64,000 bases of DNA, taken from positions 133,748-197,747 of the forward strand of contig JAMCYU010000004.1 of the NCBI GenBank assembly GCA_023473585.1. Direction: 5' to 3'. This document shows, in pieces, positions 4,969-60,767 of this stretch (position 1 is its first letter; each line of letters starts with the position of its first letter). Position numbers and translations under genes: made by a program. The DNA is from Patescibacteria group bacterium (GTDB lineage Bacteria > Patescibacteriota > Microgenomatia > JAMCYU01). The notes beneath the pieces were generated by a model, which saw only the letters and a program-made list of their open reading frames with translations, did no database searches and had not been told where the DNA came from.

Positions 4969-5744
4969 AAAAGGTGGCCGTAAAACAGGGCAAAAATCGT
5001 GCTTCCTGCCAAAAACGGTCCAAAAGGAATATGACTTTTTAACTTTTTTTTGCCTCTTAAAATCAGTATTACACCGATGGCGGCCCCTGTCAAGAAAGCC
5101 AGGTATAAAGCGACGATAATTTTCGGATAGCCCAAAAAAAGACCCATCAAAACGGCTAATTTGAAATCCCCAAAACCCATACCCCGGCCGGAAGTTAATA
5201 AAAATAAAATTAAAAAAAGGAGACCGGCCAAAAAGCCGGAGATGAGATTCGATATAAGGATATTGGGATATAAGGAGAAGATGAGAGTGATGATGATGGC
5301 CGGATAAACGATTTCGTCGGGAATTATTTCGTGGTAAAGATCAATAAAGAAAATGACAATTAAAGCGTAAATAAGTATTAAGTAGTAGGTAGTAAGTATT
5401 AAGTCTTGTCTGCTTAATACTAAATACTTAATACTTAATACTGTAAGTACTCCCGTCACTAATTCCACAAAAGGATATTGCCAACTGATAGGGAAGTGAC
5501 AATGCCGGCAACGACCGCCCAAAACAAGAAAAGAAAGAAGCGGAAGGTTATCATACCAGGAAATTTTCTTTTTGCATTTAGGACAAAAAGAGCGGCCGGT
5601 AAGGGGAAGGGAATTGGGTAAACGATAAATCAAAACATTCAAAAACGAACCGAATACCAAACCAAAACAAAAGAAAAAAAGTGGAAACAAAAAAATCATA
5701 AGAAAATTAACACCTTTACACTGAAAGAATTCAACCTTATACAA
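4938..5744 (-). CDS. pilD: Prepilin peptidase (A24 family) PilD
   Basis: GSFLNVLIYRLP, a tetracysteine CPKC...CRHC motif, catalytic FFIDLYHEIIPD and GMGFGDFKL. The start may be the internal Met (MIFLFPLFFF). Confidence 0.85.
   Translation of the reverse strand: MYKVEFFQCKGVNFLMIFLFPLFFFCFGLVFGSFLNVLIYRLPNSLPLTGRSFCPKCKKKISWYDNLPLLSFLVLGGRCRHCHFPISWQYPFVELVTGVLTVLSIKYLVLSRQDLILTTYYLILIYALIVIFFIDLYHEIIPDEIVYPAIIITLIFSLYPNILISNLISGFLAGLLFLILFLLTSGRGMGFGDFKLAVLMGLFLGYPKIIVALYLAFLTGAAIGVILILRGKKKLKSHIPFGPFLAGSTIFALFYGHLLWEKLIAALL
5372..5457. repeat. AGTAT/ATACT-type AT-rich simple-repeat block inside pilD
   Basis: TAAGTATTAAGTAGTAGGTAGTAAGTATTAAGTCTTGTCTGCTTAATACTAAATACTTAATACTTAATACTGTAAGTACT. 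It shares 16-19-mers with the blocks at 8981-9017 and 28466-28497 and encodes SIKYLVLSRQDLILTTYYLILIY. Confidence 0.7.
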
Positions 5745-5782: not shown

Positions 5783-6202
5783 TTATGGCGGACAGACACC
5801 AACTCCCGTACTTGTTCCAATCTTCCCGTTTGACGCACACCAAACAAAAGCAGGCGTCGGCGACGTTCCACCCGTATATTTTTTAGACAGCAAGTTTGTG
5901 GAAACAATCGGCGCGCTAGTCGTTCCCCCAATCGTATACGTATATCCTGTTGGTGGAGTAGGCGCAGTTTTTAACTCTCCAAATGTGACCAAATCGGCTG
6001 TTGTCAAAACGTAAACCGAACTGTGAGCTGTGGCATACGCCTCCATAGCGGTAGCAATCTGCCCGATATCGTTCATCGCTTTAGCGTCGTTGGCCGAGCG
6101 TATCTTATCTAAAGGATCAATAACCATAAACAACCCGGCTGAAAGAACGGCTAAAATAGCGATCACAACCAAAAGCTCAATTAAAGTAAAACCTCTTTTC
6201 AT
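5783..6202 (-). CDS. pilA: Type IV major pilin candidate (139 aa)
   Basis: MKRGFTLIELLVVIAILAVLSAGLF is a classic prepilin leader plus N-methyl-Phe helix. It is short and has a strong SD (AGGGGGTG) upstream. Confidence 0.75.
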   Translation of the reverse strand: MKRGFTLIELLVVIAILAVLSAGLFMVIDPLDKIRSANDAKAMNDIGQIATAMEAYATAHSSVYVLTTADLVTFGELKTAPTPPTGYTYTIGGTTSAPIVSTNLLSKKYTGGTSPTPAFVWCASNGKIGTSTGVGVCPP

Positions 6203-8980: not shown

Positions 8981-9017
8981 CATACTTAATACTTTATACT
9001 TAATACTAAATACTAAT
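8981..9017. repeat. ATACTTAATACT tandem repeat block in the pilB-pilT intergenic region / pilT 5-prime UTR
   Basis: CATACTTAATACTTTATACTTAATACTAAATACTAAT. Confidence 0.7.
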
Positions 9018-10798: not shown

Positions 10799-11545
10799 AT
10801 GTCAATTATTAAAATGCAAAGTTTTATTCTTGTCGGCGGGTCAGAAGAAGAAAGACTAAAAAAAGCTCTGGACCTTAACGGTCAGGATTTAAAAATCTCC
10901 AAGTTTGATACTATTATTATTGGGGGTGAAACTTCAATCGGCATCGGCCAGATCCGTCAACTCTTTCATGAATTAAGTCTAAAACCTTATAATTCCAAAG
11001 CCAGGTCGGCGATTGTTCATCCCGGAGAACTCTTGACCGTCGAGGCCCAGAATGCCCTTTTAAAAATGCTGGAGGAGGCCAGAGAAACGGCCTTCATCAT
11101 TTTAACCACACCGCAAATTGACCTTTTGTTGTCCACTGTGACCTCCCGCTGCCAAATCATTAAATTAGCTCCCAAAACCGAAATTTCTTTAGAGGAAGAA
11201 GAATTTAAGAAAATGATTTTTGATCTATTATCTATTATCCAATCAGGAGTAGGGGAAAGGTTAAAATTTGCCGAAACTTTGGGAAAAGATCGGGAAGAAA
11301 TCAAACTTTGGCTTATTAAATTACTAACTGTCTGCCGGGAAATATTATTATTAAAAAGCGGCGCCAGGGTTGACCCGCAACGTGTTAACATGTTAACACA
11401 ATATGGAAAAACCCCAGCACTTTTAACAACGGCGGATTTACTGCAAACGATTAAGGAAATTAACCAAACAAAAACCATGCTTGAGCAAAATGTCAATCCC
11501 AGATTAGCTTTAGAAAATCTTCTGCTCGCTTTTCCTAAAACTTAA
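10799..11545 (+). CDS. holB: DNA polymerase III delta-prime subunit-like (HolB)
   Basis: AQNALLKMLEE and TVTSRCQ (SRC motif); no P-loop, as expected for delta-prime. Confidence 0.55.
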   Translation: MSIIKMQSFILVGGSEEERLKKALDLNGQDLKISKFDTIIIGGETSIGIGQIRQLFHELSLKPYNSKARSAIVHPGELLTVEAQNALLKMLEEARETAFIILTTPQIDLLLSTVTSRCQIIKLAPKTEISLEEEEFKKMIFDLLSIIQSGVGERLKFAETLGKDREEIKLWLIKLLTVCREILLLKSGARVDPQRVNMLTQYGKTPALLTTADLLQTIKEINQTKTMLEQNVNPRLALENLLLAFPKT

Positions 11546-11564
11546 AAAAAGTCCTTTTTCTCCT

Positions 11565-11592
11565 TGATTTACGCTAAAATTTTTGCTAAAAT
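11565..11592 (+). promoter_or_regulatory. Sigma70-like promoter upstream of gyrB
   Basis: TTGATT (11565-11570), 16-nt spacer, TAAAAT (11587-11592). Confidence 0.4.
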
Positions 11593-11623
11593 AGACCTAT
11601 CTAATCTTTAAAAATCAGTCTAA

Positions 11624-13612
<1,989 letters not shown>

Positions 13613-13640
13613 TATAATAACAATTGAAAGGAGATTATTT

Positions 13641-15668
13641 ATGGATATTCAAATTCTGGCCTTGACTTTGGCTCCCTTAACCGCCATTGTCGCCTTAGGT
13701 TACGGTGCTTTTTTGGTCAAAAGGGTGACTTCGGAAGAAGAAGGAACCCAAAAAATGCGGGAAATCGGTCAGGCGATTCGTGATGGTTCCATGGCCTATC
13801 TTTATCGCCAGTTTAGGGTCGTTAGCCTTTTTTTGGGCATTTTAGCTTTGATTTTGGGTTTAACTTTGGGCTGGGGCGTCGCCGGAACTTTTGTTTTGGG
13901 AGCGGTTTTTTCCGCCATTACCGGTTATGTGGCCATGTGGATTGCGGTTAAGGCCAACGTCAGAACGGCGCAAGCCGCAACTTTGGGTTTAAATCCGGCT
14001 TTAAAAATTGCTTTCGGCGCCGGTACGGTTAACGGGATGCTGATTGTCGGTTTAGGCCTTTTGGGCGTTTCGATTATTTATGTCGCGGCTTATTTTTTAA
14101 AGATCGCCCAAGGACCACAGGCGGTGGCTAAACTCGCCACTGATGTTTTAGTCGGTTACGGTTTTGGGGCCGCCCTTTTAGCGCTTTTTATGCGGGTTGG
14201 GGGAGGGATTTTTACCAAAGCCGCGGATGTGGGAGCGGATTTGGTCGGTAAAGTCGAAAAGGGCATCCCCGAAGATGATCCCAGAAATCCCGCGGTTATT
14301 GCTGACCAGGTTGGTGATAACGTCGGCGACTGCGCCGGCATGGGCGCGGATGTTTTTGAGTCATACGCCATCACCATCGTCGCCGCCATGATTTTAGGCG
14401 GCAGCATGTTCGGACTTCCGGGCGTGGTTTTTCCGCTTTTGGCCCGTTCCGGAGCTATTTGGACTTCCATTTTAGGCAGTTTCTTTGTGAAAGCGAAAAA
14501 CGATCAGGAAAATCCTTTAAATCCCTTAATGCGCGGTTTCATCTTGTCAGCCGTCGCCGCCATCGTCATTTTTATGGCTTTGGCGATTTTTCTTCTGGGT
14601 GAACCCAAAGCCGGCCTCGCCTCGGTCGCCGGTATCTTAGCCATGCTGGGTCTTCTCTATATTACCAAGTACTACACCGGTCCCGGCGAAAAACCGGTGG
14701 TCGAGATTGCTAACGCCTCAAGCACCGGCGCCGGCACGAATTTAATCGCCGGTTTGGCTTTGGGCATGCAATCAACGATTCCTTCAGTCTTGGTTGTGGT
14801 TTTTGCCATTCTGACCGGCTACACCCTGATGGGTTTTTACGGCATTGCCCTGGCCGGAATGGGAATGTTAGCGACCACCGGAATCATCATGTCTTTGGAT
14901 ACTTTTGGCCCCATTTCCGATAACGCCCAGGGAATTGCGGAAATGGCGGGTTTAACGACCGGCAAAGCCGCCAAAGTCACGAATGATTTGGATGCGGTCG
15001 GGAATACGACCAAAGCCCTAACCAAGGGTTTTGCCATCGGTTCGGCCGCGGTCGCGGCGGTTTCTCTTTACGCGACTTACTTTGAAATCACCGGCTTGTC
15101 AGCCATTAATATTGCCGATCCCAAAACCTTTGTGGGTTTGTTATTGGGAGCAGCGGTTCCTTTCCTTTTTAGCTCCAGACTTATCTCGGCTGTCGGCCGG
15201 GCGGCTTTCTTAATGGTTGAAGAAGTCAGACGCCAATGGAAAACTATCAAGGGGATTATGGAGGGAACGGCCAAACCCGATTATGCCAAGTGTGTGGAAA
15301 TCTCAACCGTTGCCGCCCAAAAAGAATTAGTGGTTCCTGCCATTTTAGTCATCGGTTCGCCCATCGCCATCAGTCTTTTAGGGGCTCAAGCCTTGGGAGG
15401 CTTTTTAAGCGGCACCATCGCTTCCGGGCTTTTGCTGGCTTTTTTCATGGCCAATACCGGCGGCGCCTGGGACAACGCTAAAAAATATATTGAAGACGGC
15501 CATTTGGGCGGTAAAGGCTCTGACGCTCATAAAGCGGCCGTGGTCGGGGATACGGTCGGGGATCCTTTAAAGGATACGGCCGGACCGGCGATTAACCCCA
15601 TGATTAAAATCATTAATATCGTGGCGTTATTAATCGCCCCCTTTGTCATGGCGATGATCGGTAAATAA
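13641..15668 (+). CDS. hppA: Membrane-bound H+/Na+-translocating pyrophosphatase
   Basis: GGGIFTKAADVGADLVGKVE, DNVGDCAGMGADVFESY, 15-16 TM helices; SD AAAGGAG upstream. Confidence 0.9.
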   Translation: MDIQILALTLAPLTAIVALGYGAFLVKRVTSEEEGTQKMREIGQAIRDGSMAYLYRQFRVVSLFLGILALILGLTLGWGVAGTFVLGAVFSAITGYVAMWIAVKANVRTAQAATLGLNPALKIAFGAGTVNGMLIVGLGLLGVSIIYVAAYFLKIAQGPQAVAKLATDVLVGYGFGAALLALFMRVGGGIFTKAADVGADLVGKVEKGIPEDDPRNPAVIADQVGDNVGDCAGMGADVFESYAITIVAAMILGGSMFGLPGVVFPLLARSGAIWTSILGSFFVKAKNDQENPLNPLMRGFILSAVAAIVIFMALAIFLLGEPKAGLASVAGILAMLGLLYITKYYTGPGEKPVVEIANASSTGAGTNLIAGLALGMQSTIPSVLVVVFAILTGYTLMGFYGIALAGMGMLATTGIIMSLDTFGPISDNAQGIAEMAGLTTGKAAKVTNDLDAVGNTTKALTKGFAIGSAAVAAVSLYATYFEITGLSAINIADPKTFVGLLLGAAVPFLFSSRLISAVGRAAFLMVEEVRRQWKTIKGIMEGTAKPDYAKCVEISTVAAQKELVVPAILVIGSPIAISLLGAQALGGFLSGTIASGLLLAFFMANTGGAWDNAKKYIEDGHLGGKGSDAHKAAVVGDTVGDPLKDTAGPAINPMIKIINIVALLIAPFVMAMIGK

Positions 15669-15703
15669 AATCGCCTGCCCAAAAGTGAAAGAGAGGTGAA
15701 ATT

Positions 15704-15856
15704 ATGAAGGAAGCAGAATACGAAGCAGCGATGGATCAAATTAGAAGGCCGGAGATGACTCCGGAGGAGGTAGCCGAAACCATCAGAAGGGGAATTTTTG
15801 AACCTAAAGATTTTACATCGGCGCAATTAAAACCGCCCGTTCCTGAAAAAGAATAA
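15704..15856 (+). CDS. Small hypothetical protein (50 aa) between hppA and gyrA
   Basis: ATG preceded by SD AGAGGTG. Translates [50 protein letters not shown]. Not in the ORF track because it is under 60 aa. Confidence 0.3.
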
Positions 15857-15861
15857 GATTT

Positions 15862-18345
15862 ATGAATATCGGTAAAGTACAAGCAACGGACATAACTACG
15901 GAAATGCAAAAGTCCTATTTGGACTATGCCATGTCGGTTATCGTGGCCCGGGCTTTGCCTGATGTCCGCGACGGTTTAAAGCCGGTGCATCGCCGCATTC
16001 TTTACGCCATGCACCAGATGAATTTAACCCACAGCGCTCATTTTGCCAAAAGCGCCAAGATTGTCGGAGAAGTCTTGGGCAAATATCATCCTCATGGGGA
16101 TATGGCGGTTTATGACGCCATGGTCAGATTAGCCCAAAATTTTTCCATGCGTTATCCGCTCGTTGAAGGACAGGGTAATTTCGGCTCGATTGACGGCGAT
16201 CCGGCGGCCGCCATGAGGTACACGGAAACCAGACTGGCCCAAATCAGCCAGGAAATGCTTGCCGATTTGGAAAAAGAAACCTGTGATTTCTTGCCCAATT
16301 TTGACGCGACCCTTAAAGAACCGGTTTTTTTACCGGCTAAACTCCCAAACCTGCTTTTAATGGGTTCCGAAGGGATTGCCGTCGGCATGGCCACGAAGAT
16401 CCCGCCTCATAATTTAACTGATGTCCTAGACGCCGTCAATTTTATGATTGAAAAAGGCCGGGTTGATAAAGACGATCATTTTGTTTCCGAAGCCACGGTC
16501 GAGGATTTGGTCGAAATTATTAAAGGCCCGGATTTTCCGACCGGCGGCACCATTTATGATATCAACGAAATTATCGGAAGCTACGCGACCGGACGGGGCA
16601 AAATCTTAATCCGCGGCAAAGCGGAAATTGAAGATATCGGTCAGGGCAAGGCCGCGATCATCGTTTCCGAACTGCCTTATCAGGTTAATAAATCCATGTT
16701 TGTTGCCAAAATTGCCGAGCTGGTCAAAGAGAAAAAATTGGAGGGAATTTCCGATTTGCGCGACGAATCCGACCGGCGCGGCATCAGGGTTTACATTGAA
16801 TTGAAACGCGACGCCAGACCCCAGCAGGTTTTAAATAATTTATATAAACACACCGAACTGCAAACCGTTTTTCCGGTCAATGTCGTCGCTTTGGTCGATG
16901 GCACCCCTCAAACCCTAACACTGAAAATGATTTTGGAAGCCTATCTTGAACACCGCCGTGAAGTCGTCCGTAAAAGATCGGAATTTGAATTGAGGGAGGC
17001 CCGGGCCAGGGCTCATATTTTGGAAGGCTTAAAAATTGCCGTCGAGAATATTGACGCGGTGATTGAAACCATCAAAAAAGCCAAAGACGCGGAAGCGGCC
17101 AAATCGGCTTTGATGACAAAGTTTAAATTAACCGAAATTCAGGCCACGGCGATTTTAGACATGCAGCTTCGACGTTTAGCGGCTTTGGAACGCCAAAAAA
17201 TTGAAGACGAATATCAGATGATTAAGGAAACCATCGCTTACCTTGAAGATTTGCTTACTCATCCGGAAAAGATCTTAAAAATCATCAAAAATGAATTAAC
17301 CTATCTTAAGGAAAAATACGGCGACGAAAGAAAAACCCGCGTGGTTAAAAGCAAGGTTGGGGAATTTTCCGACGAACAATTAATTCAAAAAGAAACGACC
17401 ATTGTCACCATTACCCGCGGCGGTTATGTCAAAAGATTATCCCCTCTCTCTTTTAAGACGCAGGGGCGAGGAGGTAAGGGAGTTATAGGCATGGTAACAA
17501 AGGAAGAAGACGAAATTGAACACTTAATTTTCTCAAATACCCACGAAAATATCCTTTTCTTTACGAATAAAGGCAAAGTTTATCAACTTAAAGTCTGGGA
17601 TCTGCCCGAAGGAACAAGGATCAGTAAGGGTCAGGCGATTGTCAATTTGATCAATACCGAACAGGGAGAATTGGTTTCCTCGGTCTTAACCTACAGCGAA
17701 AACGCCAAAGAAAAGAAGCAGAGCTTTTCTCCGAAGAAATTTATTTTCTTAACCACCAAGGGCGGCACGGTTAAAAAAACGGCCATCTCCGAATTTACCA
17801 ATATCCGCAGAAACGGCCTAACCGCCATCAAGCTTTCTCCGGGCGATACTCTTTCCTGGGCGAAATTAACCGACGGGGCTTCAGAAGTGATTTTAATTAC
17901 CAGCAAAGGAAAAGCGATTAGATTTAACGAAAAACAGGTCAGACCCATGGGCCGAGACACCATGGGCGTTCGGGGCATTGCCGTTTCTGGAGGAGATTTT
18001 GTCATTGGTATGGATGTCATTGACGATCCTAAAGCTAACCTTCTAGTCGTCATGGAAAAAGGCATCGGCAAACGCAGTCCCTTGTCTGATTTCCCCAAAC
18101 AAGGTCGTGGCGGTATGGGTGTTAAAGCCTCCGAAGTGACACCGCGAACCGGCAAAGTCGTTTTTGCCCAGATTATTCCGGAAAAAACCGAAACTCTCAT
18201 CTTAAATTCCAGTAAGGGCCAGGTTGTTAAGGTCTTAATTGATCAGGTCCCCAAACTTTCCCGCGCGACTCAAGGGGTCATTTTGATGAGGTTTGCCGAC
18301 AGCAAAGATTCTTTAGCCACAGCCACTTGTATGGCTAAAGACTAA
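15862..18345 (+). CDS. gyrA: DNA gyrase subunit A
   Basis: [17 protein letters not shown], active-site Tyr region and C-terminal beta-pinwheel repeats with the GyrA box (QGRGGKG). Confidence 0.95.
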
Positions 18346-18870: not shown

Positions 18871-19800
18871 TTATTTATTACCCCGATGAAAAGTTTCGTG
18901 AACGTCTTTTAAACGGCGGTTGGTCACATGAGTGTAGATCACGGTTGTGTTAATGCTCTCGTGGCCTAAAAGTTCCTGGACGCTTCTTAAATCCGCTCCG
19001 GCCATCAAAAGGTCGGTGGCAAAGGAATGACGCAAAGTATGCGGCGTCGCCAAAACCGGCAGCTTGGCTTTGGCGACGTACTTTTCGATTAAACGCTCGA
19101 CCGATCTTACCGTCAGACGTAAAGTTTCGCCGTCTTTACCCGGGTCAGCCTTCTTGCCGCCGTAACGAATAAATAAGGGTTTGTAGGCATCCTGGCGGGC
19201 TCCCAGGTATTTCCTCAACCATTCCGTGGCTCTTTTAGACAAGTAAACAACCCTGACTTTGCGGCCCTTTCCGACAACCCCAAATTCGCGGCGCTCCAGA
19301 TTAATTTGGTCCTTATTTAAAGAGACCAATTCGGAAACCCGAAGACCGGTCGAAAACAAAACCTCCATAATGGCTTTATCGCGGAAACCCTGGGGCTTGG
19401 AAAGATCCGGTTGACTTAAAAGTCTTTCGATTTGATCGGGGTCCAAAAACTTAATCATTCTTTCCTGGCTGCGTTTAGGCAATTCAATTCTTTTAGGCGC
19501 CAAACTTTTGATTTCCTGTCTTTCCAAATAACCCAAAAAGGCCCGTAAAATAATAATATGGTAAGTCTGCGTTAACTTTTTTAAGGGCAAATTACGCTCG
19601 GTTAATCTGGCCAAATAAACCCGGTATTTTTGCACCATCTCCAGGGTTAAATTTTCCGGCTTTGTACCGGGAAAATTAGCCTCAAGCCAGCCGTCAAATC
19701 TGTCCAGATAAAGTTTATAATTGCGCACCGTCAGGGGTGAACAGTCTTTTTCGATTTCCAAATATTCCAGGTACCTATTAATAGCCTCGGAAAAATTCAT
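18871..19800 (-). CDS. xerC: Tyrosine recombinase, XerC/XerD family
   Basis: R..GLRVSEL, GKGRKVRVV and HTLRHSFATDLLMAGADLRSVQELLGHESINTTVIYTHV (R-H-R-Y catalytic signature). Confidence 0.85.
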   Translation of the reverse strand: MNFSEAINRYLEYLEIEKDCSPLTVRNYKLYLDRFDGWLEANFPGTKPENLTLEMVQKYRVYLARLTERNLPLKKLTQTYHIIILRAFLGYLERQEIKSLAPKRIELPKRSQERMIKFLDPDQIERLLSQPDLSKPQGFRDKAIMEVLFSTGLRVSELVSLNKDQINLERREFGVVGKGRKVRVVYLSKRATEWLRKYLGARQDAYKPLFIRYGGKKADPGKDGETLRLTVRSVERLIEKYVAKAKLPVLATPHTLRHSFATDLLMAGADLRSVQELLGHESINTTVIYTHVTNRRLKDVHETFHRGNK

Positions 19801-19920
19801 AAATTATTTTTAACAAAGAAAGTTTTTATTTTTTTGGGTTTTAATAGGGGAGGGCTAAAAACGAGGCCAGGGGCCCTTTTTGGGAAAACAGGGTAATGGG
19901 GGTTAAAAAATGAAAACATA

Positions 19921-19977
19921 ATTCTATTTTAATTTTTTTTCTTAAATTTTTCTATCTTTTAATTTTTTCTTTTTTTG
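19921..19977. other. Extremely AT-rich tract (about 90% A+T), DNA-unwinding-element-like
   Basis: ATTCTATTTTAATTTTTTTTCTTAAATTTTTCTATCTTTTAATTTTTTCTTTTTTTG. Confidence 0.5.
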
Positions 19978-20260
19978 ACCACTTCTCCGGATCTGTGCCT
20001 GGTTAACGTCGTAAAAGTGTAGTTATACGACATATTAGATTATTTCCTCCCCGTTGTCAAGTCCCTCTTTTTTATAAGAACCGGGGTTAGCCGGATCTTT
20101 AATCTGGTTAACTCTTGGAGGAGAAAAGAAGGACTTCTCCGAAAGTCTTTGAAGATTGAAAAAGATGATAAGATTTTAGAAAGAGATCATTGAATCAAAG
20201 GACCAAGGAAGTCTTCGGTCAAAAGAAGAGCCCTCTTTATCCCTTACAGTGACACGCAAG

Positions 20261-20663
20261 TTTAGCAGATTATAACGCGCTAAACTGTTTATTTTAAGGC
20301 TACGTCTCTGTCTCGGCTCTTTCGGCTTTTTTTCGGTCGTCCGTATTTTAACGATATTTAGCGCATATTAACGCCCTAAACTTGTAATTTTGAGGCTGTT
20401 ATTCTCATGAGTCTTCTTAAGGATAAAGACGATTTAGGCGATCATAAAGCTCTAAACTCTTATTTTTAAAGCTCATAATTCTTCCCAGTCCCCAGCACCC
20501 AAGAGAAGCAATTGCTGATCTAACCGGATCAATCATGTACGTAACTAGTTTAGCCCATTGTAACGGTCTAAATCATTAATTTTAAGGCTAAGTTTTGAAA
20601 GAATTTTGATCATCATTTAGTTTTAGAGCATAATAACGCGCTAAAGTCAATTTTAATGCGTAA
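20261..20663 (+). repeat. Array of five degenerate ~44-bp direct repeats, each with an internal hairpin
   Basis: Copies at 20261, 20357, 20433, 20549 and 20621, with consensus TTTAGCnnAT(T)ATAACGCGCTAAAcTGTtTATTTTAAGGCT. Each has an inverted repeat TTTAGCGC/GCGCTAAA. Spacing is irregular (72-116 bp). Confidence 0.7.
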
Positions 20664-20765
20664 ATTAAGTGTTCAGCTTTGGAGAAGAAGAGTTTGCGGC
20701 AACGAGCGAGTCGGGGCGTGAAAAGAATACCCGAATTTCGTGAAATAAAGTTTAATCATGAGAAG

Positions 20766-20774
20766 TTATCCACA
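20766..20774 (+). promoter_or_regulatory. Perfect consensus DnaA box TTATCCACA
   Basis: Exact match within the ORF-free region; only one perfect copy was found. Confidence 0.4.
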
Positions 20775-20896
20775 ACAAGAAATCAGTTTTTAGTTATTTT
20801 ACTATAGGCTTATTAAAAGACCTAAATATATCAAACTATATCAGGAGCTTCACGCCCTTAAACCTCCCCCACTCCCCAACCAAACTCTTTAATTTT

Positions 20897-21715
20897 TTAA
20901 CCCCAGCTTGTCGTTATCAAAACTAAAACAAAAACGACGCCGGCGACGGAAACAAATTCCGTAATGGTTTGGCGAAATAATCTTTCAACCAGGTTCTGTT
21001 GGATAAGACCAACAATGGTATAGTAAATCGTGGTCAGAAATAAAGCTTCGATCACGCCCTGTATTGGCCAAAAAGAAAAAACAAAAGCGAATTCGGCAAA
21101 AGATAAGGAAGTAAGAAAAGTAAAAATAAGAATTTCCCCGTCAATTCGGGGATCAAGTCTCATGGACCAAAGAGATTGCAAACTTAAAGGCAGCGAAATT
21201 AAAAAAACCAAAAGGACATTCCAATAAGCCGGTAAGTGTAAAGAAAAAACAACGCTAAAAAACAAAAAGAGAGTAAAAAGAGTGATTAAAAGTCCAACCG
21301 AATGAGCGGCTCTTAAAAGCTGAATGGTCCGTTCCGCCGCGACATTATAGATATTCTCAACGAGTAAAATGGCGTACATCCCGACGGCAAAAAGAAAAGC
21401 CGTCGGCAGTCTCGTCAGCCAACGCACCGGCAGTAAAAAATAAAAAAGATTAATCGCCGCGGTATACATCGCCGGCAAGATAAACAACGTTAACCACTCT
21501 ACCCCGGCTAAATCCTCGCGCAAACTCCAGGCCGACAGAAGATAGGTTAAAACAACCAAAACGATAATCAGTTGGTAGCGAAAACTGGATGCAGCTAACT
21601 GAACCGCCAAAAGACCCAGCGTCAAAAGACCAACCACCACCCCAAACTTCTCTCTTTTCGTGAAGCTTAACCTTTTCCGAAAAAATCTCAAGATTTTTTT
21701 AAACCTTTTTTTCAT
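20897..21715 (-). CDS. Hypothetical polytopic membrane protein
   Basis: Basic N-terminus followed by about 8 hydrophobic helices; no recognisable motif. Confidence 0.5.
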   Translation of the reverse strand: MKKRFKKILRFFRKRLSFTKREKFGVVVGLLTLGLLAVQLAASSFRYQLIIVLVVLTYLLSAWSLREDLAGVEWLTLFILPAMYTAAINLFYFLLPVRWLTRLPTAFLFAVGMYAILLVENIYNVAAERTIQLLRAAHSVGLLITLFTLFLFFSVVFSLHLPAYWNVLLVFLISLPLSLQSLWSMRLDPRIDGEILIFTFLTSLSFAEFAFVFSFWPIQGVIEALFLTTIYYTIVGLIQQNLVERLFRQTITEFVSVAGVVFVLVLITTSWG

Positions 21716-28195: not shown

Positions 28196-28945
28196 AGATG
28201 AAAGAATTTGCTGCAAATCTTCCGGTAATTTTGCTTCCATTTTGCATAATTTTCCGGTTGCCGGATGAAGAAATTCAATCGAAGCGGCGTGTAAAAAAAC
28301 TCTGGGACAAAATTTCCGGTCGTCTCTTCCTCTTTTTCGGCCCGCGTAAAACTCGTCACCGACAATGGGAAAACCGAGATATTTTAAATGAACCCGAATT
28401 TGATGCGTCCGCCCAGTCAAAGGCCAAACTTCAAGAAACGTTAAAGGCTCCCTGTCTCCGTTTGTAACTTTATACTTTATACTTAATACTTTATACCTGG
28501 TTTCCGCTTCCCTGCCGCCGGGAAAAACACCGAAACGTTCTCTCTGCCAAGGAAGCCGACCGATAGGCGCCTTGATTTCACCTTCCTCGGGCGCAACTTG
28601 GCCGTGAACCAACGTAAGATAGGTCTTTTTAACTTTTCTTTCCTTAAATTGCGCTTGGAGGTTTAAAAAAGCTTCTTCGGTTTTGGCAATCAAAAGTAGG
28701 CCGCTTGTCTCTTTATCAGTTCGATGAACAATTCCCGCTCTTTTAACAAAGTCACTGTCCCCGATTGTAGATTTTAAATTGTGAATTTTAAATTTTTTCT
28801 CAACCCAATCCTGCACTGTTTCCAGATCTTTTGTCGTGTCGGCCTTATTAACGATCATACCGGAGGGTTTATCTATTACTAGAATTTCTTCGTCTTCGTA
28901 AAGAATTTTCGGGGAAAGGTTCACTTTTGTTTCTTTTTTTCGCAC
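28187..28945 (-). CDS. RluA-family pseudouridine synthase
   Basis: HRTDKETSGLLLIAKT carries the catalytic Asp motif. Confidence 0.8.
   Translation of the reverse strand: MRKKETKVNLSPKILYEDEEILVIDKPSGMIVNKADTTKDLETVQDWVEKKFKIHNLKSTIGDSDFVKRAGIVHRTDKETSGLLLIAKTEEAFLNLQAQFKERKVKKTYLTLVHGQVAPEEGEIKAPIGRLPWQRERFGVFPGGREAETRYKVLSIKYKVTNGDREPLTFLEVWPLTGRTHQIRVHLKYLGFPIVGDEFYAGRKRGRDDRKFCPRVFLHAASIEFLHPATGKLCKMEAKLPEDLQQILSSLI
28466..28497. repeat. ACTTTATACTTAATACT repeat block in frame inside the RluA-family gene
   Basis: AACTTTATACTTTATACTTAATACTTTATACC encodes YKVLSIKYKV. It shares the peptide LSIKY and a 19-mer with the other blocks. Confidence 0.7.
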
Positions 28946-31960: not shown

Positions 31961-32524
31961 CTATTTCATTACTCTTTCTTCGTATTCTCCCGTTCTCGTA
32001 TCTACTAAAATCCGATCACCTAACTTGACAAAAAGAGGGACTTTAATTTTTAACCCATTAGAAAGGACGGCGTCTTTAAAAATGTTCGTCGCCGAATTGC
32101 CCCTGATCCCCGGTTCGGTTTCGGCAACGGTAAACTCCATTTTAATCGGTAATTCTAAGGTTAAAGGCTCCTCCTGATGAAAAAGAATTTTGACGGTCAT
32201 GCCTTCCTGAAGATAAGGGGCGCTGTCTGCAATTTTTTCGGCCGAAAGCTCAATCTGTTCAAACGTTTGCGGATCCATAAAAACGAAATTGGTCGCTTTG
32301 TAAAGATATTGCATTTCTTTTTTGGCAAGCGACGCTTCTTCAACTTTAGCCCCGGAAATAAAGGATTTCTCCGTGGTTGCCCCCGACTTTAAGTTTTTGA
32401 CTTTAACCCGAATTGTCGCTGTGCCACGACCCATTTTGACATGTTCATAGGTCAAGACCAAAAAAAGATCTTTACCGTCAGTAAAACAAGCACCGGTGCG
32501 TAAATTAGTAACCGGAATCATCAT
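31961..32524 (-). CDS. efp: Elongation factor P
   Basis: KMGRGTATIRVKVKNLKSGATTEKSF matches the EF-P KOW/OB domains. The stop codon is TAG. Confidence 0.9.
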   Translation of the reverse strand: MMIPVTNLRTGACFTDGKDLFLVLTYEHVKMGRGTATIRVKVKNLKSGATTEKSFISGAKVEEASLAKKEMQYLYKATNFVFMDPQTFEQIELSAEKIADSAPYLQEGMTVKILFHQEEPLTLELPIKMEFTVAETEPGIRGNSATNIFKDAVLSNGLKIKVPLFVKLGDRILVDTRTGEYEERVMK

Positions 32525-34002
32525 GCCTCCAAAAAATTTAAAATCGTGCGAACGGCAAAGCCCGTTCCGCCCCGAGGCAAAAGATCAGTCCCTTTCTCCT
32601 GCCAGGCCGGACCGGCGATGTCTAAATGGGCCCATGGCGTTTTGGAAATAAATTCCTGTAAAAAAAGCGCGGCCGTGATGGCGCCGCCAACGTGTCTGCC
32701 GGTGACATTTTTTAAATCGGCGGTTTCCGATTTTAAAAGCTCCCGATAGGTTTTTTCAAGCGGCATCGGCCAGAATTTTTCGCCGACCGCCTCGCCCGCT
32801 TGGCTTATTTCTTTGACTAATTTTTGCTCGTCGGAAAAGATGCCGGCAATGTCCTCGCCCAAAGCGACCAGACAAGCTCCGGTCAGGGTGGCGATGTCCA
32901 AAATAAGGTCGGGTTTTAAGGTTTCACCAAAAGCCAGGGCGTCGGCCAAAATCAGCCGGCCCTCGGCATCGGTATTGACAACCTCGATGGTTTTGCCGTT
33001 ATAGGCTTTAACAATATCACCGGGCTTAATCGCTTTGCCGGAGGGCATATTTTCGGTCACGGGCATTAAACCGATAATATGAACTCGGGGTTTAATTTTT
33101 TCCAAAACCGAAAAAACGGCCAAAATCGCGGCCGCTCCGGCCATGTCCATTTTCATCGTTTCCATCTCGTTTTGTTTTTTCAAGGACAAACCGCCGGTGT
33201 CAAAAGTGATGCCCTTGCCGACCAAAACGATTTTCCTCGCCCGCCGAAGCCTTGGCGAAGGCGGGTTGTATTCCAGTCTAATTAATTTAGGAGGCTCATC
33301 AGAGCCTTGGGCCACGCCCAAAAGGGCTCCCATGCCTAATTTCTTTAAATCCTCCTTTTCGTAAATTTTGCAAAGAAATTTGCTGTTTTTGCCGATTTTT
33401 TCCGCTAAAGAAGCCAAATAGGTCGGCGTCGTCACCGAGGAAGGTTCGTTAACCAAGTCTCGGGCGAAAATTGTCGCCTGACTCAAAATTTCGCCCCTGG
33501 TTAACTTCTCTCTTAAAGACACCAATTCCCGGGCGTCTTTGACCAAAATAACGATTTCTTTTTCCGTTTCTTTTTCTTTTGAAGGCCCAACCGACTTGTA
33601 TTTCCCAAACTGGTAACTTCCCAACGTTATTCCTTCAACTAAGGCCTGTACAAATTCAAAATCAGCCTGATTAGCGAAACCCAGACTCTCGATCCCCTCT
33701 TCCTTAAGTTTCTTGGCTAAGGCGGCAAACACCTGACGGGCTTTTAAGGCATTAAAATCGGCTTTTTTACCTAAACCGAGAAGAATGACTTTTTCGGCGA
33801 AAAGTTTTTTGTATGAAGGAACAATAAGAAATTTGCCCGTTTCGGCCTTAAACTGACGGCGAAGAGTTTCTTTTTTTAAAAAACCTCCCAAAACCCGGTC
33901 GATTTGGTCGGCATAAGGAGTAAAACCTTCTTCCCAAACAAAAAGAGCGATCGCTTCGGTTTGGGCTTGCTCAAGACTCCCGATCTTAAGAGTAAATTTC
34001 AT
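32521..34002 (-). CDS. pepA: Leucyl aminopeptidase (M17)
   Basis: NTDAEGRLILADAL and the catalytic Lys/Arg region. The gene ends with TGA, showing that TGA is a stop codon here. Confidence 0.9.
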   Translation of the reverse strand: MKFTLKIGSLEQAQTEAIALFVWEEGFTPYADQIDRVLGGFLKKETLRRQFKAETGKFLIVPSYKKLFAEKVILLGLGKKADFNALKARQVFAALAKKLKEEGIESLGFANQADFEFVQALVEGITLGSYQFGKYKSVGPSKEKETEKEIVILVKDARELVSLREKLTRGEILSQATIFARDLVNEPSSVTTPTYLASLAEKIGKNSKFLCKIYEKEDLKKLGMGALLGVAQGSDEPPKLIRLEYNPPSPRLRRARKIVLVGKGITFDTGGLSLKKQNEMETMKMDMAGAAAILAVFSVLEKIKPRVHIIGLMPVTENMPSGKAIKPGDIVKAYNGKTIEVVNTDAEGRLILADALAFGETLKPDLILDIATLTGACLVALGEDIAGIFSDEQKLVKEISQAGEAVGEKFWPMPLEKTYRELLKSETADLKNVTGRHVGGAITAALFLQEFISKTPWAHLDIAGPAWQEKGTDLLPRGGTGFAVRTILNFLEA

Positions 34003-41869: not shown

Positions 41870-41877
41870 ACTTCGTT

Positions 41878-41972
41878 AATTAACCTAATTGACCTAATTA
41901 ACCTAATTTCTAAAAAATAACCCATTTAATAATTTTTTTAGGTCAATTAGAAATTAGAGCAATTAGAAATTT
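41878..41972. repeat. CTAATT-rich palindromic intergenic element, copy R1
   Basis: Tandem CCTAATTRA units with inverted repeat CTAATTGACCTAA...TTAGGTCAATTAG and AATTTCTAA/TTAGAAATT. Core TTGACCTAATTTCTAAA is shared with the copies at 58119 and 58993. Confidence 0.7.
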
Positions 41973-52981: not shown

Positions 52982-53590
52982 TTAAAAATCCTTTCTGCCT
53001 TCAAGCGCCCGAGACAAAGTTACTTCATCAGCATACTCTAAATCCCCGCCGGTTGGCAAACCCTGACCTAATCTCGTAATTTTAAATTTTAAATTTGAAA
53101 TTTTAAATTGATTTTTGATGTACATGGCCGTCGCTTCTCCTTCCATATTGGGATTGGTTGCCAAAATAATTTCCGAAACCGGGTAGGCAAAGGATTTAGT
53201 CCTTTCTAAAAGTTTCTCAATATAAAGCTCATCCGGACCGATATTATTTAAGGGAGAAATCGCTCCGTGAAGAACATGATAAACACCCTGATATTTGCCA
53301 GTTTTTTCCAAAGCCAAAACATCCAAAGCTTGTTCCACGACACAGATTATTTTTTTGTCACGTTTGGGATCCGAACAAGTCGGGCAGGGATCGCTTTCGG
53401 TCACGTTAAAACAAACGGAGCAAAGAACCGTTTTTTGTTTTAAACTCTTTAGGGCCTCGCTAAAATCCTCCAGTTGCTCCTGCGGGACATGAAGAAGATA
53501 AAAAGTTAATCTTTGGGCGCTTTTTGGCCCGATACCCGGCAGTCTTTCAAAAGATTCAATTAATTTTTGCAAGGATTTAGGAAGCTGCAT
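52982..53590 (-). CDS. recR: Recombination protein RecR
   Basis: Start MQLPKSLQKLIESFERLPGIGPKSAQRL (HhH), C4 zinc finger CSVCFNVTESDPCPTC, Toprim, and C-terminal GEATAMYI...GGDLEY. Confidence 0.9.
   Translation of the reverse strand: MQLPKSLQKLIESFERLPGIGPKSAQRLTFYLLHVPQEQLEDFSEALKSLKQKTVLCSVCFNVTESDPCPTCSDPKRDKKIICVVEQALDVLALEKTGKYQGVYHVLHGAISPLNNIGPDELYIEKLLERTKSFAYPVSEIILATNPNMEGEATAMYIKNQFKISNLKFKITRLGQGLPTGGDLEYADEVTLSRALEGRKDF
53068..53103. repeat. AT-rich octamer tandem repeat (AATTTKAA)x4 in frame inside recR
   Basis: TAATTTTAAATTTTAAATTTGAAATTTTAAATTGATT encodes KNQFKISNLKFKI. It is 33/36 identical to the repeat inside the kinase gene at 57178-57215. Confidence 0.8.
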
Positions 53591-56620: not shown

Positions 56621-57588
56621 TTTAAATCCTCTCTAAAATTTTCTTGATAACGATTTTTAAATTCTTCCACGGTAAATTTATGAGTTGTTGTTCCGTATTT
56701 TTCGACAGTGTAAACTGCCGCGATGCTCCCCATTTTACCACAAGTCTTTAAAGGTAGTCCACGAAGAAAACCGGCCAGAAATCCTGCCCGATAAGCATCA
56801 CCGGCCCCGGTTGGATCAAGAACTTCGCGCGGTTTGGCTGGTGGTATTTTGTACGTTTTTCCGTCAGCTTCGACGATCGATCCCTTGTCTCCTAATGTTG
56901 TTATCCAGACTTGAGATATAGTTTGACCTATTGATTCCCCGCCTGCGCCGAGGCTTCGGCGGGCAGGCCGGAATCGGTTGCGAATTAAGGCTATTTCATA
57001 ATCATTTCCAGTGACAATTTTCGCTCCCTCAATTCCTAATTTTAAATCTTTGTCTGATAATCTCGGTAACTGCATCCCCGGGTCAAACATATATGGCAGA
57101 TTCAATTTAAGACAATTGTTAACATGGTTATTCATGGCTTTTGGTTCATTCGGAGATATGACAACAAAAGGAGTTTGTCCAATTTGAAATTTGAAATTTG
57201 AAATTTGAAATTGTGCGCTTGCACGCATGGCTCCCGGGTAAAAACCGGTAATTTGGTTATCAACCATGTCCGTAAAAATAAAAGCCGAGGCAGTTGGTTC
57301 TGCTTCAATGATTGATATCATTGAAGTGTCAACACCAACTTTTTCTAGTTCACTTTTATATTCAGCAAAATCATAACCGGCCGTGGCTAAAACGGTAGGT
57401 CTTAAACCGAGTAGTGCTAAATTATAAGCAATATTGCCGGCGGTCCCGCCGTACTGTTTTTGCAATTTCTCGACTAAAAAAGAGAGGTTAATCTCATGAA
57501 TTTTTTCAGGTAAAATATGGTCGCCAAATTTACCCGGAAAATTCATAATTAAATCAAAGGCTAAAGAACCGGTAATAATTACTTTCAT
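56569..57588 (-). CDS. PfkB-family carbohydrate/nucleoside kinase
   Basis: N-terminal GG motif ([15 protein letters not shown]) and C-terminal [13 protein letters not shown]. Overlaps the ahcY start by 52 nt. Confidence 0.75.
57178..57215. repeat. Perfect (AATTTGAA)x4 tandem repeat in frame inside the kinase gene
   Basis: Encodes [11 protein letters not shown]. Near-identical to the recR copy. Confidence 0.85.
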
Positions 57589-59354: not shown

Positions 59355-60767
59355 TTACAACACCTCCTTTTCTTTTAATTTAGGAAAAACTTTTATTTTC
59401 TTCCCGAATAATTCCTCAATGACTTTCTCTAAAAGCTCTCTGATTTTTGTTTCCGATAAGCGCTCGTAGTGAAATTTATAAAACACATTAAGGACTAAAG
59501 TTTCGCCGTCATAAGCCCCGGGCTGGCAGGAACGCAGAAGGCCGGCCACCGAATGATTATACGGCTTAACGGCGGTTAAAATCTCCTCCCAACGGGTTTC
59601 TATCTCGGAAATCTGCTGATTGTCCCCAGAGACCTTTATTTGCGGGCTAGGTTTCGGCTCTGGGGATGACATTTCAACGATTGGTTGGGGAAATTCCGCT
59701 TTGGCCGGTCCAGCTTTTTCTTGACCGCCACACCATTCAACGACAGCCATCTCCAAAGGAAGCTCGGGAATTGAAGTATTTTTAAGTTCCTGACCGGCTT
59801 TTGAAAAAAGATTAATTAGGATTTTAAGGTCGCTAATTTCTAAATTTTCCAGCGGTTCCTGATAAGGGAAATTTTCTTGGGTTAAGCCGTATTTTTTTAA
59901 AAGATGAGCGTGTAATGTCTCTAAAATTGTTTGATTTAAAAATTTAAAATCCACTCCTTTTTCCGCCATTAAACCAATCATCTCTAGGCCCTGTTTCGCG
60001 TCATGGGTCGGTATCCAACCAAAAAGATTGCCGCCAATCTTCTTCTCTCCTAACACTTTTTGCACCATTTCGTCAGTAATCTTGGCTCTGGGATAAGCGG
60101 TCAAAACCTCCTCCAAAAGCTTATGGGCGTCGCGATAACTGCCATCGGCTAATTGCGCAATTTGTTCTAGGGCCTTCTCGTCAATCTCTCTTTCCTCTCC
60201 CCTTTTGGCCCTTTTGAGCGACTGGAGAAGATCCGAAATTCCGGCTTTTTTAAAATCAATTTGCCGGCAACGCGAGACGATGGTTTCGGGCAGTTTTTCC
60301 GCGTTAGTCGTGCAAAGAACAAAAAGAGCGTGTTCCGGCGGCTCTTCGAGGGTTTTTAAAAGAGCGTTAAAGGCTTCTGTTGTCAGCATGTGGACCTCGT
60401 CAATAATGTAAATTTTTTTCCTGGCTCCGGCAGGCGCCAACCTAATCTTGTCGCGCAAATCTCTGATTTCATCAATGCCGCGATTTGAGGCGGCATCAAT
60501 TTCTAAAATATCCAAATTCGTGCCGTTGGTGATGGAAAGACAGGTGGAGCAACGATTGCAAGGTTCGCCTTTACCATTATTTTTCTCGCAATTAAGACTT
60601 TTAGCGATAATTCTGGCGGATGAGGTTTTCCCGGTTCCTTTAGGTCCGGAAAATAAAAAAGCGTGGGGGGGCCTACCTGAAGATAAAATCTTTTCTAATT
60701 TCTCCCGAACTTCGGGGTTATCAATTTCGGCAATTTTTTGCGGTCGGTATTTTCGGTAAAGAACCAT
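59355..60767 (-). CDS. dnaX: DNA polymerase III gamma/tau subunit
   Basis: Walker A GPKGTGKTS, zinc module CNRCSTC and SRC-like TIVSRCRQ. Confidence 0.9.
   Translation of the reverse strand: MVLYRKYRPQKIAEIDNPEVREKLEKILSSGRPPHAFLFSGPKGTGKTSSARIIAKSLNCEKNNGKGEPCNRCSTCLSITNGTNLDILEIDAASNRGIDEIRDLRDKIRLAPAGARKKIYIIDEVHMLTTEAFNALLKTLEEPPEHALFVLCTTNAEKLPETIVSRCRQIDFKKAGISDLLQSLKRAKRGEEREIDEKALEQIAQLADGSYRDAHKLLEEVLTAYPRAKITDEMVQKVLGEKKIGGNLFGWIPTHDAKQGLEMIGLMAEKGVDFKFLNQTILETLHAHLLKKYGLTQENFPYQEPLENLEISDLKILINLFSKAGQELKNTSIPELPLEMAVVEWCGGQEKAGPAKAEFPQPIVEMSSPEPKPSPQIKVSGDNQQISEIETRWEEILTAVKPYNHSVAGLLRSCQPGAYDGETLVLNVFYKFHYERLSETKIRELLEKVIEELFGKKIKVFPKLKEKEVL

Follow-up and report, generated by a model that had tools for sequence, protein, structure and literature searches.

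A conserved non-coding locus next to the xer gene in a Microgenomates (Patescibacteria) lineage and its possible role as a Xer recombination and control region

What function could a kilobase of DNA without genes have next to the gene of a site-specific recombinase? We address this question for a window of 64,000 nucleotides (the whole stretch of DNA analysed here, 64 kb) from contig JAMCYU010000004.1 of a Patescibacteria group bacterium. Between xer, which encodes a XerC/D-type tyrosine recombinase, and the gene of a DUF5656 membrane protein (20897-21715, minus strand) lies a gap of 1096 bp, the largest gene-free stretch in the window. As stated by the initial annotation of this DNA, neither strand of the gap holds an open reading frame (ORF) of 60 codons or more, the gap is situated directly upstream of xer, and gyrA (15862-18345) and gyrB (11630-13612) are found on the other side of that gene. 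The same annotation considered a replication origin or iteron-type region, a remnant of an element once mobilised by the recombinase, and a cluster of small structured RNAs. We favour a different reading, to which we give a probability of roughly 0.4: the gap would mainly be a DNA-level control and recombination region of the adjacent xer gene, made up of a candidate Xer site (dif-like site or operator) and of accessory protein-binding repeats.

The gap corresponds to a genuine non-coding locus that a large Microgenomates (Patescibacteria) lineage has conserved. Gene order is unchanged in four relatives whose Xer proteins are 76-95% identical to that of the window, and a gene-free gap of 0.96-1.2 kb separates their DUF5656 gene from xer. 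The alignment of these five gaps (A1, the window and its four relatives) consists of long invariant blocks alternating with variable stretches. In three genomes with a Xer identity of 62-64%, the element is still located downstream of the DUF5656 gene, with 2-3 small genes inserted before xer. A metagenome scan with a DUF5656 alignment yielded 80 loci, and most of those with enough downstream sequence display an identical order of motifs after the DUF5656 stop codon. About 60 related metagenomic loci keep the gap in its place between the DUF5656 gene and xer. All conserved blocks and motifs share one orientation relative to DUF5656, corresponding to the minus strand of the window. Lineage-wide, the element is modular: a head (G-rich tract, TGATATAGTTTGATATAG, CTATAGG, DnaA 9-mer and two TTTCACG repeats) precedes a body of 0-7 repeat units and a tail containing a 24-bp dyad. 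The possibility of a decayed protein gene was rejected, as the small ORFs are not conserved and a 24-codon ORF starting at the dyad has stop codons in loci L010 and L012; ARAGORN found no tRNA or tmRNA. As far as Rfam and the searchable literature show, neither the element nor its 24-bp site has been described before. Neither the gap nor 15 related loci gave an Rfam match at the gathering threshold (raising the limit to E values of up to 10 yielded nothing beyond chance level), and searches for the element, the 24-bp site, dif/Xer in these bacteria, DUF5656, Patescibacteria oriC and non-coding RNAs of the Candidate Phyla Radiation (CPR) returned nothing relevant. One of the related assemblies, GCA_040960625.1, holds two versions of the whole syntenic locus (L009, with a Xer 95% identical to that of the window, and L012, with 80%), indicating that it mixes at least two related organisms.

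The evidence for a Xer site comes from the tail of the element, where a sigma-70-type promoter pointing toward xer is directly abutted by the 24-bp imperfect dyad (coordinates of all features are collected in Table 1). This dyad has the anatomy of a Xer core site, with inverted arms, a centre in the 6-8-bp range and arms free of pairing constraint. Its two 9-bp arms enclose a variable centre of 6 bp (consensus GTCGYAYAA-N6-TTTTRCGAC), which is CTACAC in the window and TAATAC, TGTATC, TGTACC or TGATAC elsewhere. Matches to the pattern GTCG[CT]A.AA-N6-TT.T[GA]CGAC come from 49 distinct related loci and without exception lie in the gap, in a single orientation; there is one dyad per related locus and one in the entire 64 kb. 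In E. coli dif, the XerC arm and the centre read GGTGCGCATAA-TGTATA. The left arm and centre of the dyad resemble this sequence, and some copies have an exact TGTATA or TGTATC centre. A canonical dif was also looked for and rejected, since the proteobacterial/Firmicute consensus is unmatched in the window.

Isolated halves of the dyad point to the xer promoter as well. The left half-site GTCG[CT]A[CT]AA, in the same orientation, occurs about 55 times downstream of the full site in 643 kb of sequence, against about 10-15 times for each of the three other half-site classes. These left half-sites sit in the xer promoter, either overlapping its -10 hexamer or adjoining its -35 hexamer. Two CPR loci that lack the large gap, one of them from Levyibacteria, likewise have a half-site directly before the start codon of xer. 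In the more distant CPR loci L002 (around 620-640) and L003 (around 5975-6001), GTCGCACAAT or GTCGTATAAT stands 8-15 nt before the xer start codon, an arrangement that suggests leaderless xer mRNAs with the -10 hexamer being part of the half-site. As for the promoter next to the full dyad, both of its hexamers are nearly invariant in the five closest genomes.

The recombinase itself scores 241 bits against the NCBIfam model for XerC, 231 against XerD and 202 against XerA, all of these values being under the equivalog cut-offs. It is thus neither a clear XerC nor a clear XerD, which fits a single-recombinase system with a near-palindromic site. Its nearest database relatives are labelled Patescibacteria, Gottesmanbacteria, Curtissbacteria and Microgenomates. 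Homologues with more than 60% identity number in the thousands, so that xer behaves as a housekeeping gene and not as a gene of a mobile element.

The dyad is not restricted to the chromosomal locus. A scan of viral contigs returned at least 120 exact matches, one per contig, 103 of the 120 being intergenic. Among 112 distinct viral copies, a sole pair of arm positions varies (position 5, C or T; position 20, G or A), with the combination CG in 48 copies, CA in 46, TG in 12 and TA in 6. The two positions therefore vary independently, which excludes a base-pairing constraint and fits a protein site on duplex DNA. The gene for the terminase large subunit, terL, is located near the dyad in 22 contigs, with the dyad upstream of it in all but one. 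Where the dyad lies within 700 bp of the terL start, 10 copies are in the opposite orientation and 6 in the same orientation, as would be expected of an orientation-free DNA site (for multimer resolution or attachment) that uses the host enzyme. Given this mixed orientation, we rejected the idea that phage late operons use the dyad in their mRNA. A phage attP beside its integrase gene was rejected too: a tyrosine recombinase gene was detected anywhere on the locus in no more than 3 of the 120 contigs, two of which have it within 500 bp, so that the arrangement is not that of a standard int-attP module. The viral contigs were also inspected for a switch of the skew at the dyad, and no pattern emerged. 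The sequence within 300 bp of viral dyads is enriched 12.7-fold in AACAGGGG (or its complement) and about 4-fold in exact DnaA boxes, two of which abut the dyad in contig L180.

Two further observations were made on these contigs. The 9-mer AACAGGGGT (or its complement) stands about 15 nt before or 28-50 nt after the dyad in many of them (L099, L118, L131, L132, L139, L147 and L210 among others), and a similar sequence, A(A/G)CAGGGAA, is found upstream of the dyad in CPR loci (ACAACGGGGAGG at about 20043-20053 in the window). Seven IMG/VR contigs of 4-5 kb (L106, L117, L121, L126, L133, L157 and L158) carry, along with the dyad, genes for an FtsQ-like protein (our own reading, without a PHROG match) and for a secreted protein of 400 amino acids. 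Judging from this gene content, the dyad-bearing "viral" contigs with an FtsQ-like gene look like fragments of CPR chromosomes rather than phages.

If the gap is a control and recombination region of xer, the sigma-70-type promoter at its xer-proximal end would fire toward xer, and Xer would bind the 24-bp dyad abutting this promoter, whose two arms and 6-bp variable centre are arranged as in dif-type core sites. Occupancy of the dyad by Xer, or of the isolated left half-sites over the xer promoter of the relatives, could auto-regulate xer. The full dyad could also act as a recombination site (dif-like or for resolution), which phage-like elements would copy in order to use the host enzyme. 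The five units and the head module (DnaA box, TGATATAG and TTTCACG direct repeats) could be accessory protein-binding elements on which a nucleoprotein complex forms to one side of the core, as in plasmid Xer sites. We infer from sequence comparison that Xer is the protein binding the dyad, that recombination takes place there and that a protein binds the units. The link to the adjacent recombinase made by the initial annotation is retained in another form, as a conserved chromosomal dyad resembling a Xer site, with half-sites in the promoter, and not as a mobile-element remnant. A more ambitious version is speculative and, taken as a whole, rather doubtful: a Xer system of the Patescibacteria with one recombinase and a 24-bp site (GTCGCACAA-N6-TTTTGCGAC) beside its own gene and off the terminus, doubling as xer operator, copied by phages and plasmid-like elements, and lying within a DnaA-box-bearing accessory array that would couple recombination or xer expression to the replication cycle.

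The body of the element is formed by the five repeat units reported earlier, all of which are present, in direct orientation. They start at 20261, 20357, 20433, 20549 and 20622 (the last start having been placed at 20621), with spacings of 96, 76, 116 and 73 bp, and are 68-83% identical. Each unit has a layout of about 45 bp, in which AGCCTCAAAA is followed after 8 nt by TTTAG-N14-CTAAA. On the minus strand, the consensus of 57 units from 20 genomes is tAGCCTcAAAAta..ag-TTT(A/G)G-agcgTtat.A.gcg-CTAAA-t. The internal inverted repeat had been described as 8 bp long; its conserved part amounts to the 5 bp of TTTAG/CTAAA, and no compensatory change was seen across the 57 units of the relatives. 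These arms are complementary in 80.6% of cells, and the covariation score of 0.145 is below the mean of shuffled alignments (0.163), 452 of 500 shuffles scoring at least as high. Dyad symmetry without covariation speaks for conserved sequence rather than maintained pairing and fits recognition by a protein. From their sequence, the units would be candidate sites for a dimeric protein, with AGCCTCAAAA as a third, related half-site 8 nt upstream. RNA or single-stranded DNA hairpins are unsupported for the same reason, leaving an A/G asymmetry over: of 56 units, 20 have a G at left-arm position 4, and 2 have the mirror change.

Depending on the lineage, there are 0 to 7 units (L012 and L013 contain whole additional units as insertions), and the sequences between units are conserved between genomes. 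The degenerate unit core TTTAGCNNATNNTAACGNNCTAAA (up to 3 mismatches) has five matches in the 64 kb, all of them in the gap, where 0.18 would be expected by chance. The unit is therefore not a generic repetitive extragenic palindrome within the window. In the loci fetched up to that search, the motif was found only in L001 (the locus of the window itself in another assembly); in relatives fetched later, units were sought inside the gap only. The earlier statement that this is not a CRISPR array is borne out by the conservation of the inter-unit "spacers" between genomes and by the absence of cas-like genes among about 50 ORFs scanned. Two other interpretations of the units were tried. Tandem sigma-70 promoters had seemed conceivable because, on the minus strand of the window, the unit centres read TAnnAT and are preceded at 17 nt by TTAAAA, a resemblance to -10 hexamers that is not kept in distant relatives. 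A plus-strand reading resembling a Cas9 guide (GTTTAG...CTAAAC followed by AAGGCTA) was abandoned, as cas genes were not found and the commonest arm variant would create C-A mismatches.

The head module contains the DnaA box, which is present at 20766-20774 as annotated and reads TTATCCACA on the plus strand. In 41 related loci, this exact 9-mer occupies the corresponding place, again upstream of the tail dyad; it is separated from the dyad by 144-186 nt in unit-less lineages and by 489-962 nt in unit-bearing ones. There are two exact DnaA boxes in the 64 kb, one of them in the gap. Around the 9-mer, other short elements recur. On the minus strand, the head direct repeats read TGATATAG; in most of 62 metagenomic loci, GATAnAGTTTGA is found about 35-110 nt past the DUF5656 stop codon; CTATAGG or CTATAGT directly precedes the 9-mer in related loci; and TTTTCACG follows it in most of them. 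As the spacing of the GATAnAGTTTGA and CTATAGG elements varies (11-27 nt), the two together do not constitute a fixed sigma-70 promoter. Between the 9-mer and the first TTTCACG repeat, structured insertions of variable length are found. One unit-less sub-lineage (L059, L066, L076, L082-L086, L088-L091, L093 and L094) has two additional exact DnaA boxes, 74 bp apart, along with CCTATAG and TTGATATATCA, just upstream of xer. There are three boxes in all in these loci, and the stretch before xer is an inverted copy of the head module, so that the dyad is bracketed by two head-like modules.

Is the gap an origin of replication? To separate effects of the coding strand from those of replication, GC skew was computed at third codon positions. 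In the window, the skew of plus-strand genes is -0.159 to the left of the gap and -0.160 to its right, and that of minus-strand genes -0.001 and -0.028. These near-equal values on both sides correspond to a replication component of about -0.09 both left and right of the gap. When 39 related loci are pooled, with DUF5656 set to the plus strand, the values for genes of the two strands are all positive, at +0.239 and +0.202 upstream and at +0.157 and +0.198 downstream; the pool includes genomes with a skew of 0.5-0.76 on both sides. The sign is constant over the 20 kb and the 44 kb that flank the gap in the window, as it is over 4 kb to each side in the 39 loci. As the sign is the same on both sides, replication appears to traverse the element in the direction from DUF5656 to xer. 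The gap is not located at the replication terminus, and the idea that it is an oriC with bidirectional replication is refuted. The origin or iteron interpretation of the initial annotation finds no more support in its other features: genes converge on the gap (to its right, 83% of coding bases point toward it), the single exact DnaA box is accompanied by no one-mismatch box in the gap, and no homologue of DnaA or DnaN was found in the window (20-44 kb to either side) or in about 90 fetched loci (4-10 kb). The A+T tract, which does measure 89.5% A+T over the interval reported, is about 800 bp away from the DnaA box and coincides with the xer promoter region.

Several points weigh against a Xer site and its accessory repeats. 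Another dimeric DNA-binding protein could own the dyad. A dif site is expected at a sign change of the GC skew and the dyad is not at one, so that a classical role in dimer resolution at the terminus is unsupported. Few viral dyads have a recombinase gene nearby (the 3 of 120 mentioned above). The strictly conserved DnaA-box 9-mer is left unexplained by the Xer model. Finally, the A/G asymmetry of the units also fits G-U pairing in a minus-strand transcript, and the tail of a sister clade seems to be used at the RNA level, at least in part.

These last two points belong to an alternative that we regard as unlikely while giving it real weight, namely that the minus strand encodes one or more non-coding RNAs: an RNA of about 0.75 kb with five repeated protein-binding modules, beginning in the head module or by read-through from a yebC-ruvC-DUF5656 operon and ending at the CCGG hairpin near 20080, and a second short RNA or xer 5' leader starting from the TTGACA-17-TAATAT promoter. 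Such transcripts would account for the single orientation of every conserved block relative to DUF5656 in all loci and for the structured insertions of variable length between conserved blocks (such as the hairpins between UGUGGAUAA and UUUUCACG in L051 and L017), these head insertions being the best remaining hint of a transcript. Read on the minus strand, variants of the unit arms are G-U-compatible rather than C-A in a ratio of about 46 to 16, and consensus folding is slightly better on that strand in 13 of 17 windows of A1. The location beside a membrane-protein gene also recalls OLE RNA beside oapA. Against this stand the lack of covariation in the unit hairpin, the weak consensus folding of the body (-1 to -13 kcal/mol per 150 nt), the independent variation of the dyad arms, the failure to find a convincing promoter of fixed spacing at the head and the absence of Rfam matches reported above. 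The tail gives different answers in the two clades. The 12 sister-clade loci have a downstream CG(C/T)AAAA that pairs with the right dyad arm and encloses a variable hairpin; next come another long hairpin and a U-rich run, and compensatory changes occur in 13 of the 28 pairs predicted. Exceptions of the G-U and of the C-A type are equally frequent there (8 each), and folding is better for the reverse strand (-40.9 kcal/mol, against -32.0), so that either strand could carry this structure. In the clade of the window, the dyad is the sole consensus structure (1 of 10 pairs compensatory, all within the dyad), and the tail has no other supported structure: GGAGAAG, located past the dyad and invariant in 11 genomes of this clade, has no supported pairing partner there, and an ACUUUU-AGAAGU helix was discarded for want of compensatory changes. 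The small structured RNAs of the initial annotation thus find support only in the two covarying hairpins of the sister-clade tail and not in the five units.

We find it improbable that the element is instead a DnaA-related replication element, whether a chromosomal, secondary or plasmid-derived origin or a locus that titrates DnaA or is regulated by it. What speaks for it is the position of the exact 9-mer, the same in 41 loci, the two further boxes in one sub-lineage, the boxes near viral dyads, the combination of an A+T-rich tract with repeats, and the presence of holB, gyrB, gyrA, dnaB and dnaX in the window. A bidirectional origin is contradicted by the skew (all four classes positive, 0.157-0.239, in the pooled loci, and unswitched in the window), by the genes facing the gap, by the lone box and by the lack of dnaA and dnaN nearby; the single box may still have a titration or regulatory role. 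Even less probable, in our view, is a remnant or docking array of mobile DNA, in the form of an attP/attB-like region with arm-type sites or of an integron-like array whose units would be recombination sites folded from single-stranded DNA. Direct imperfect palindromes upstream of a gene related to Xer and IntI do reproduce the geometry of intI, attI and attC. The variable number of units, with whole units inserted in some loci, the dyads of phage-like contigs and the fact that the strand with G-T-tolerant variants is, by skew, the lagging-strand template would fit this idea too. The locus has, however, a housekeeping synteny and conserved inter-unit sequences, so that its units are not mobile cassettes, and it has no ORFs between them. 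The integron-integrase model gives Xer 101 bits for a cut-off of 265, the unit arms (GTTTAG...CTAAAC) are in the reverse order of the R''/R' cores of attC, the unit stems do not covary, and no locus has two full dyads flanking an insertion.

Table 1. Features of the gap and of the adjoining recombinase gene, in minus-strand order (positions are those of the window).
Feature	Position	Strand	Sequence	Remarks
G-rich tract	20863-20877	-	GGGGAGTGGGGGAGG	just past the DUF5656 stop codon; conserved in alignments A1 and A2 and in related flanks; start of the element
Head, part 1	20801-20843	-	TGATATAGTTTGATATA (20843->20824), then CCTATAGT (20810->20801)	direct repeat
Head, part 2	20766-20774	-	TGTGGATAA (minus), TTATCCACA (plus)	DnaA-box 9-mer; exact match
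Head, part 3	20717-20745	-	TTTCACGAAATTCGGGTATTCTTTTCACG	two direct TTTCACG repeats, 22 nt apart; invariant block in A1
Conserved block	20656-20676	-	CTGAACACTTAATTTACGCAT	directly before the first unit; conserved in A1; variant CTTGAGTACACAATGTGTGCGTAAT in relatives
Unit 1	20622-20660	-	CGCATTAAAATTGAC-TTTAG-N14-CTAAA	first in minus-strand order (fifth in the initial annotation)
Unit 2	20549-20589	-	AGCCTTAAAATTAATGA-TTTAG-ACCGTTACAATGGG-CTAAA	
Unit 3	20433-20473	-	AGCTTTAAAAATAAGAG-TTTAG-AGCTTTATGATCGC-CTAAA	
Unit 4	20357-20397	-	AGCCTCAAAATTACAAG-TTTAG-GGCGTTAATATGCG-CTAAA	
Unit 5	20261-20301	-	AGCCTTAAAATAAACAG-TTTAG-CGCGTTATAATCTG-CTAAA	last in minus-strand order
Terminator-like hairpin	20067-20094	-	CCGG/CCGG and U-rich stretch	putative, from sequence; just upstream of the tail promoter
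Tail promoter, sigma-70-type	20032-20060	-	TTGACA-17 nt-TAATAT	toward xer; 10/12 consensus positions
24-bp imperfect dyad	20008-20031	-	GTCGTATAA-CTACAC-TTTTACGAC	candidate Xer core site or operator; directly abuts the -10 hexamer
Conserved stretch past the dyad	19977-20007	-	ends in CCGGAGAAGTGGTC	includes the proximal copy of the 22-bp repeat (19987-20007)
A+T-rich tract	19921-19977	-	TAGAAA-17 nt-TAAAAT	xer 5' region; weak promoter-like sequence; pattern of invariant A/T positions in A1
xer	18871-19800	-		XerC/D-type tyrosine recombinase (Pfam Phage_integrase and Phage_int_SAM_1); presumed partner of the dyad

Some features of the tail deserve comment. The 22-bp direct repeat noted previously is present, with its proximal copy starting at 19987 instead of 19988, its distal copy at 20091-20112, and one indel between the two. 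The distal copy overlaps the CCGG hairpin, which was not called by a terminator scan; a similar hairpin with a T-rich run is found in L009, L010 and L012. A 17-nt inverted repeat (94% complementary, 19899-19915 and 20888-20904) brackets nearly the whole gap; among the relatives, only the closest one (L009) has it, and it is probably not functional.

To the left of the gap, the gene order is holB, gyrB, a proton pyrophosphatase gene, gyrA, a small ORF and xer; to its right, the DUF5656 gene is followed by ruvC and yebC. Genes on both sides are mostly on the minus strand, with the exception of the island formed by holB, gyrB, the pyrophosphatase gene and gyrA (10799-18345), which is on the plus strand and hence head-on to the direction of replication deduced from third-position skew. 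This head-on layout from holB to gyrA is kept in relatives and is unusual for essential, highly expressed genes. At its 5' end, the gyrB ORF, called from a GTG at 11630, contains a perfect 21-bp tandem duplication (TTATTCCCAGAAAAGCTCTGC, 2.2 copies, 11671-11716), and the true start codon may be located downstream of it. A gene for a leucyl aminopeptidase of the PepA family (M17) is found at 32521-34002, 12 kb from the gap. In E. coli, PepA is an accessory protein for Xer recombination at cer and psi; the occurrence of a PepA-family gene in the same window as a candidate Xer site is probably a coincidence. Elsewhere in the window, short tandem arrays of A+T-rich units of 7-9 nt, with 4-5 copies each, are located at 5372-5442, 8982-9014, 28467-28496, 41877-41908, 53078-53109, 57181-57212 and 60766-60820. 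Some of them are intergenic, and one example is AATTTGA, repeated 4.6 times with 100% identity. A gene for a "23S rRNA intervening sequence protein" (PF05635, 6256-6660) lies within a type IV pilus/type II secretion system cluster (0.9-10.7 kb).

The CPR is a very large, mostly uncultured part of the bacterial tree, and we know of no experimental work on chromosome dimer resolution or on the maintenance of phages and plasmids in it. A short, sharply defined site that is tied to the only Xer-type gene, conserved class-wide and present in phage-like contigs offers a directly testable handle on these processes. Should it be a true dif-type site, its position off the skew switch would call into question the usual rule placing dif at the terminus; should it be the operator of another regulator, it would reveal a regulon common to host and phage. 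The locus also illustrates that a perfect DnaA box, an A+T tract and repeats beside gyrA and gyrB do not make an origin, and predictors of origins that rely on such features would mis-call it.

Parts of this arrangement recall known systems of several kinds. With an oriC, it shares about 1 kb of non-coding DNA, a perfect DnaA box, an A+T tract, repeats and a neighbourhood of replication genes, and it differs by its unswitched skew, converging genes, lone box and lack of dnaA and dnaN nearby. As in an integron platform, a Xer-related gene has an upstream array of direct imperfect palindromes in variable number; unlike an integron, the locus has no cassettes or ORFs, its inter-unit sequences are conserved, its core motifs are in the opposite order, its integrase score is low and its stems do not covary. 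The sopC site of plasmid F consists of 43-bp units, each with an inverted repeat. Several direct dyad units of about 44 bp could likewise be a multi-site platform for one DNA-binding protein, but the units described here are not tandem (conserved unique sequence lies between them) and are not adjacent to parA/parB-type genes. OLE RNA and oapA (PMC9723947, PMC12265935) offer another parallel, that of 0.5-1 kb of conserved non-coding sequence sharing the strand of an adjoining gene for a multi-pass membrane protein in one lineage; the extensive covariation-supported structure of OLE contrasts with the weak consensus folding and non-covarying units found here.

Plasmid Xer sites and single-recombinase modules appear to offer the closest kinds of comparison. 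The accessory regions of cer (ColE1) and psi (pSC101), of about 180 bp, bind accessory proteins through ArgR/ArcA and PepA sites. As in cer and psi, the candidate core has a longer non-coding region on just one of its sides, comparable sites occur on extrachromosomal or phage-like DNA without a recombinase of its own, and a PepA-family gene is present in the window; this locus differs from them in the length of that region (0.15-0.95 kb), in its unrelated dyad units, DnaA box and direct repeats, and in being chromosomal and syntenic. XerS/difSL of streptococci and lactococci and XerH/difH of epsilon-proteobacteria are single-recombinase modules with the site next to the gene. Here too, one XerC/D-like gene has a near-palindromic site close upstream, in single copy in the 64 kb, and the inner arms (...CAYAA-N6-TTTTRC...) can be compared with ...GAAAA-N6-TTTTC... 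in difH and difSL. Unlike in those modules, the candidate site described here is off the GC-skew switch, stands directly behind a promoter, has half-sites in xer promoters and is preceded by 0.15-0.95 kb of conserved non-coding modules. By this comparison, its nearest counterparts would be single-recombinase Xer modules and Xer sites with accessory sequences.

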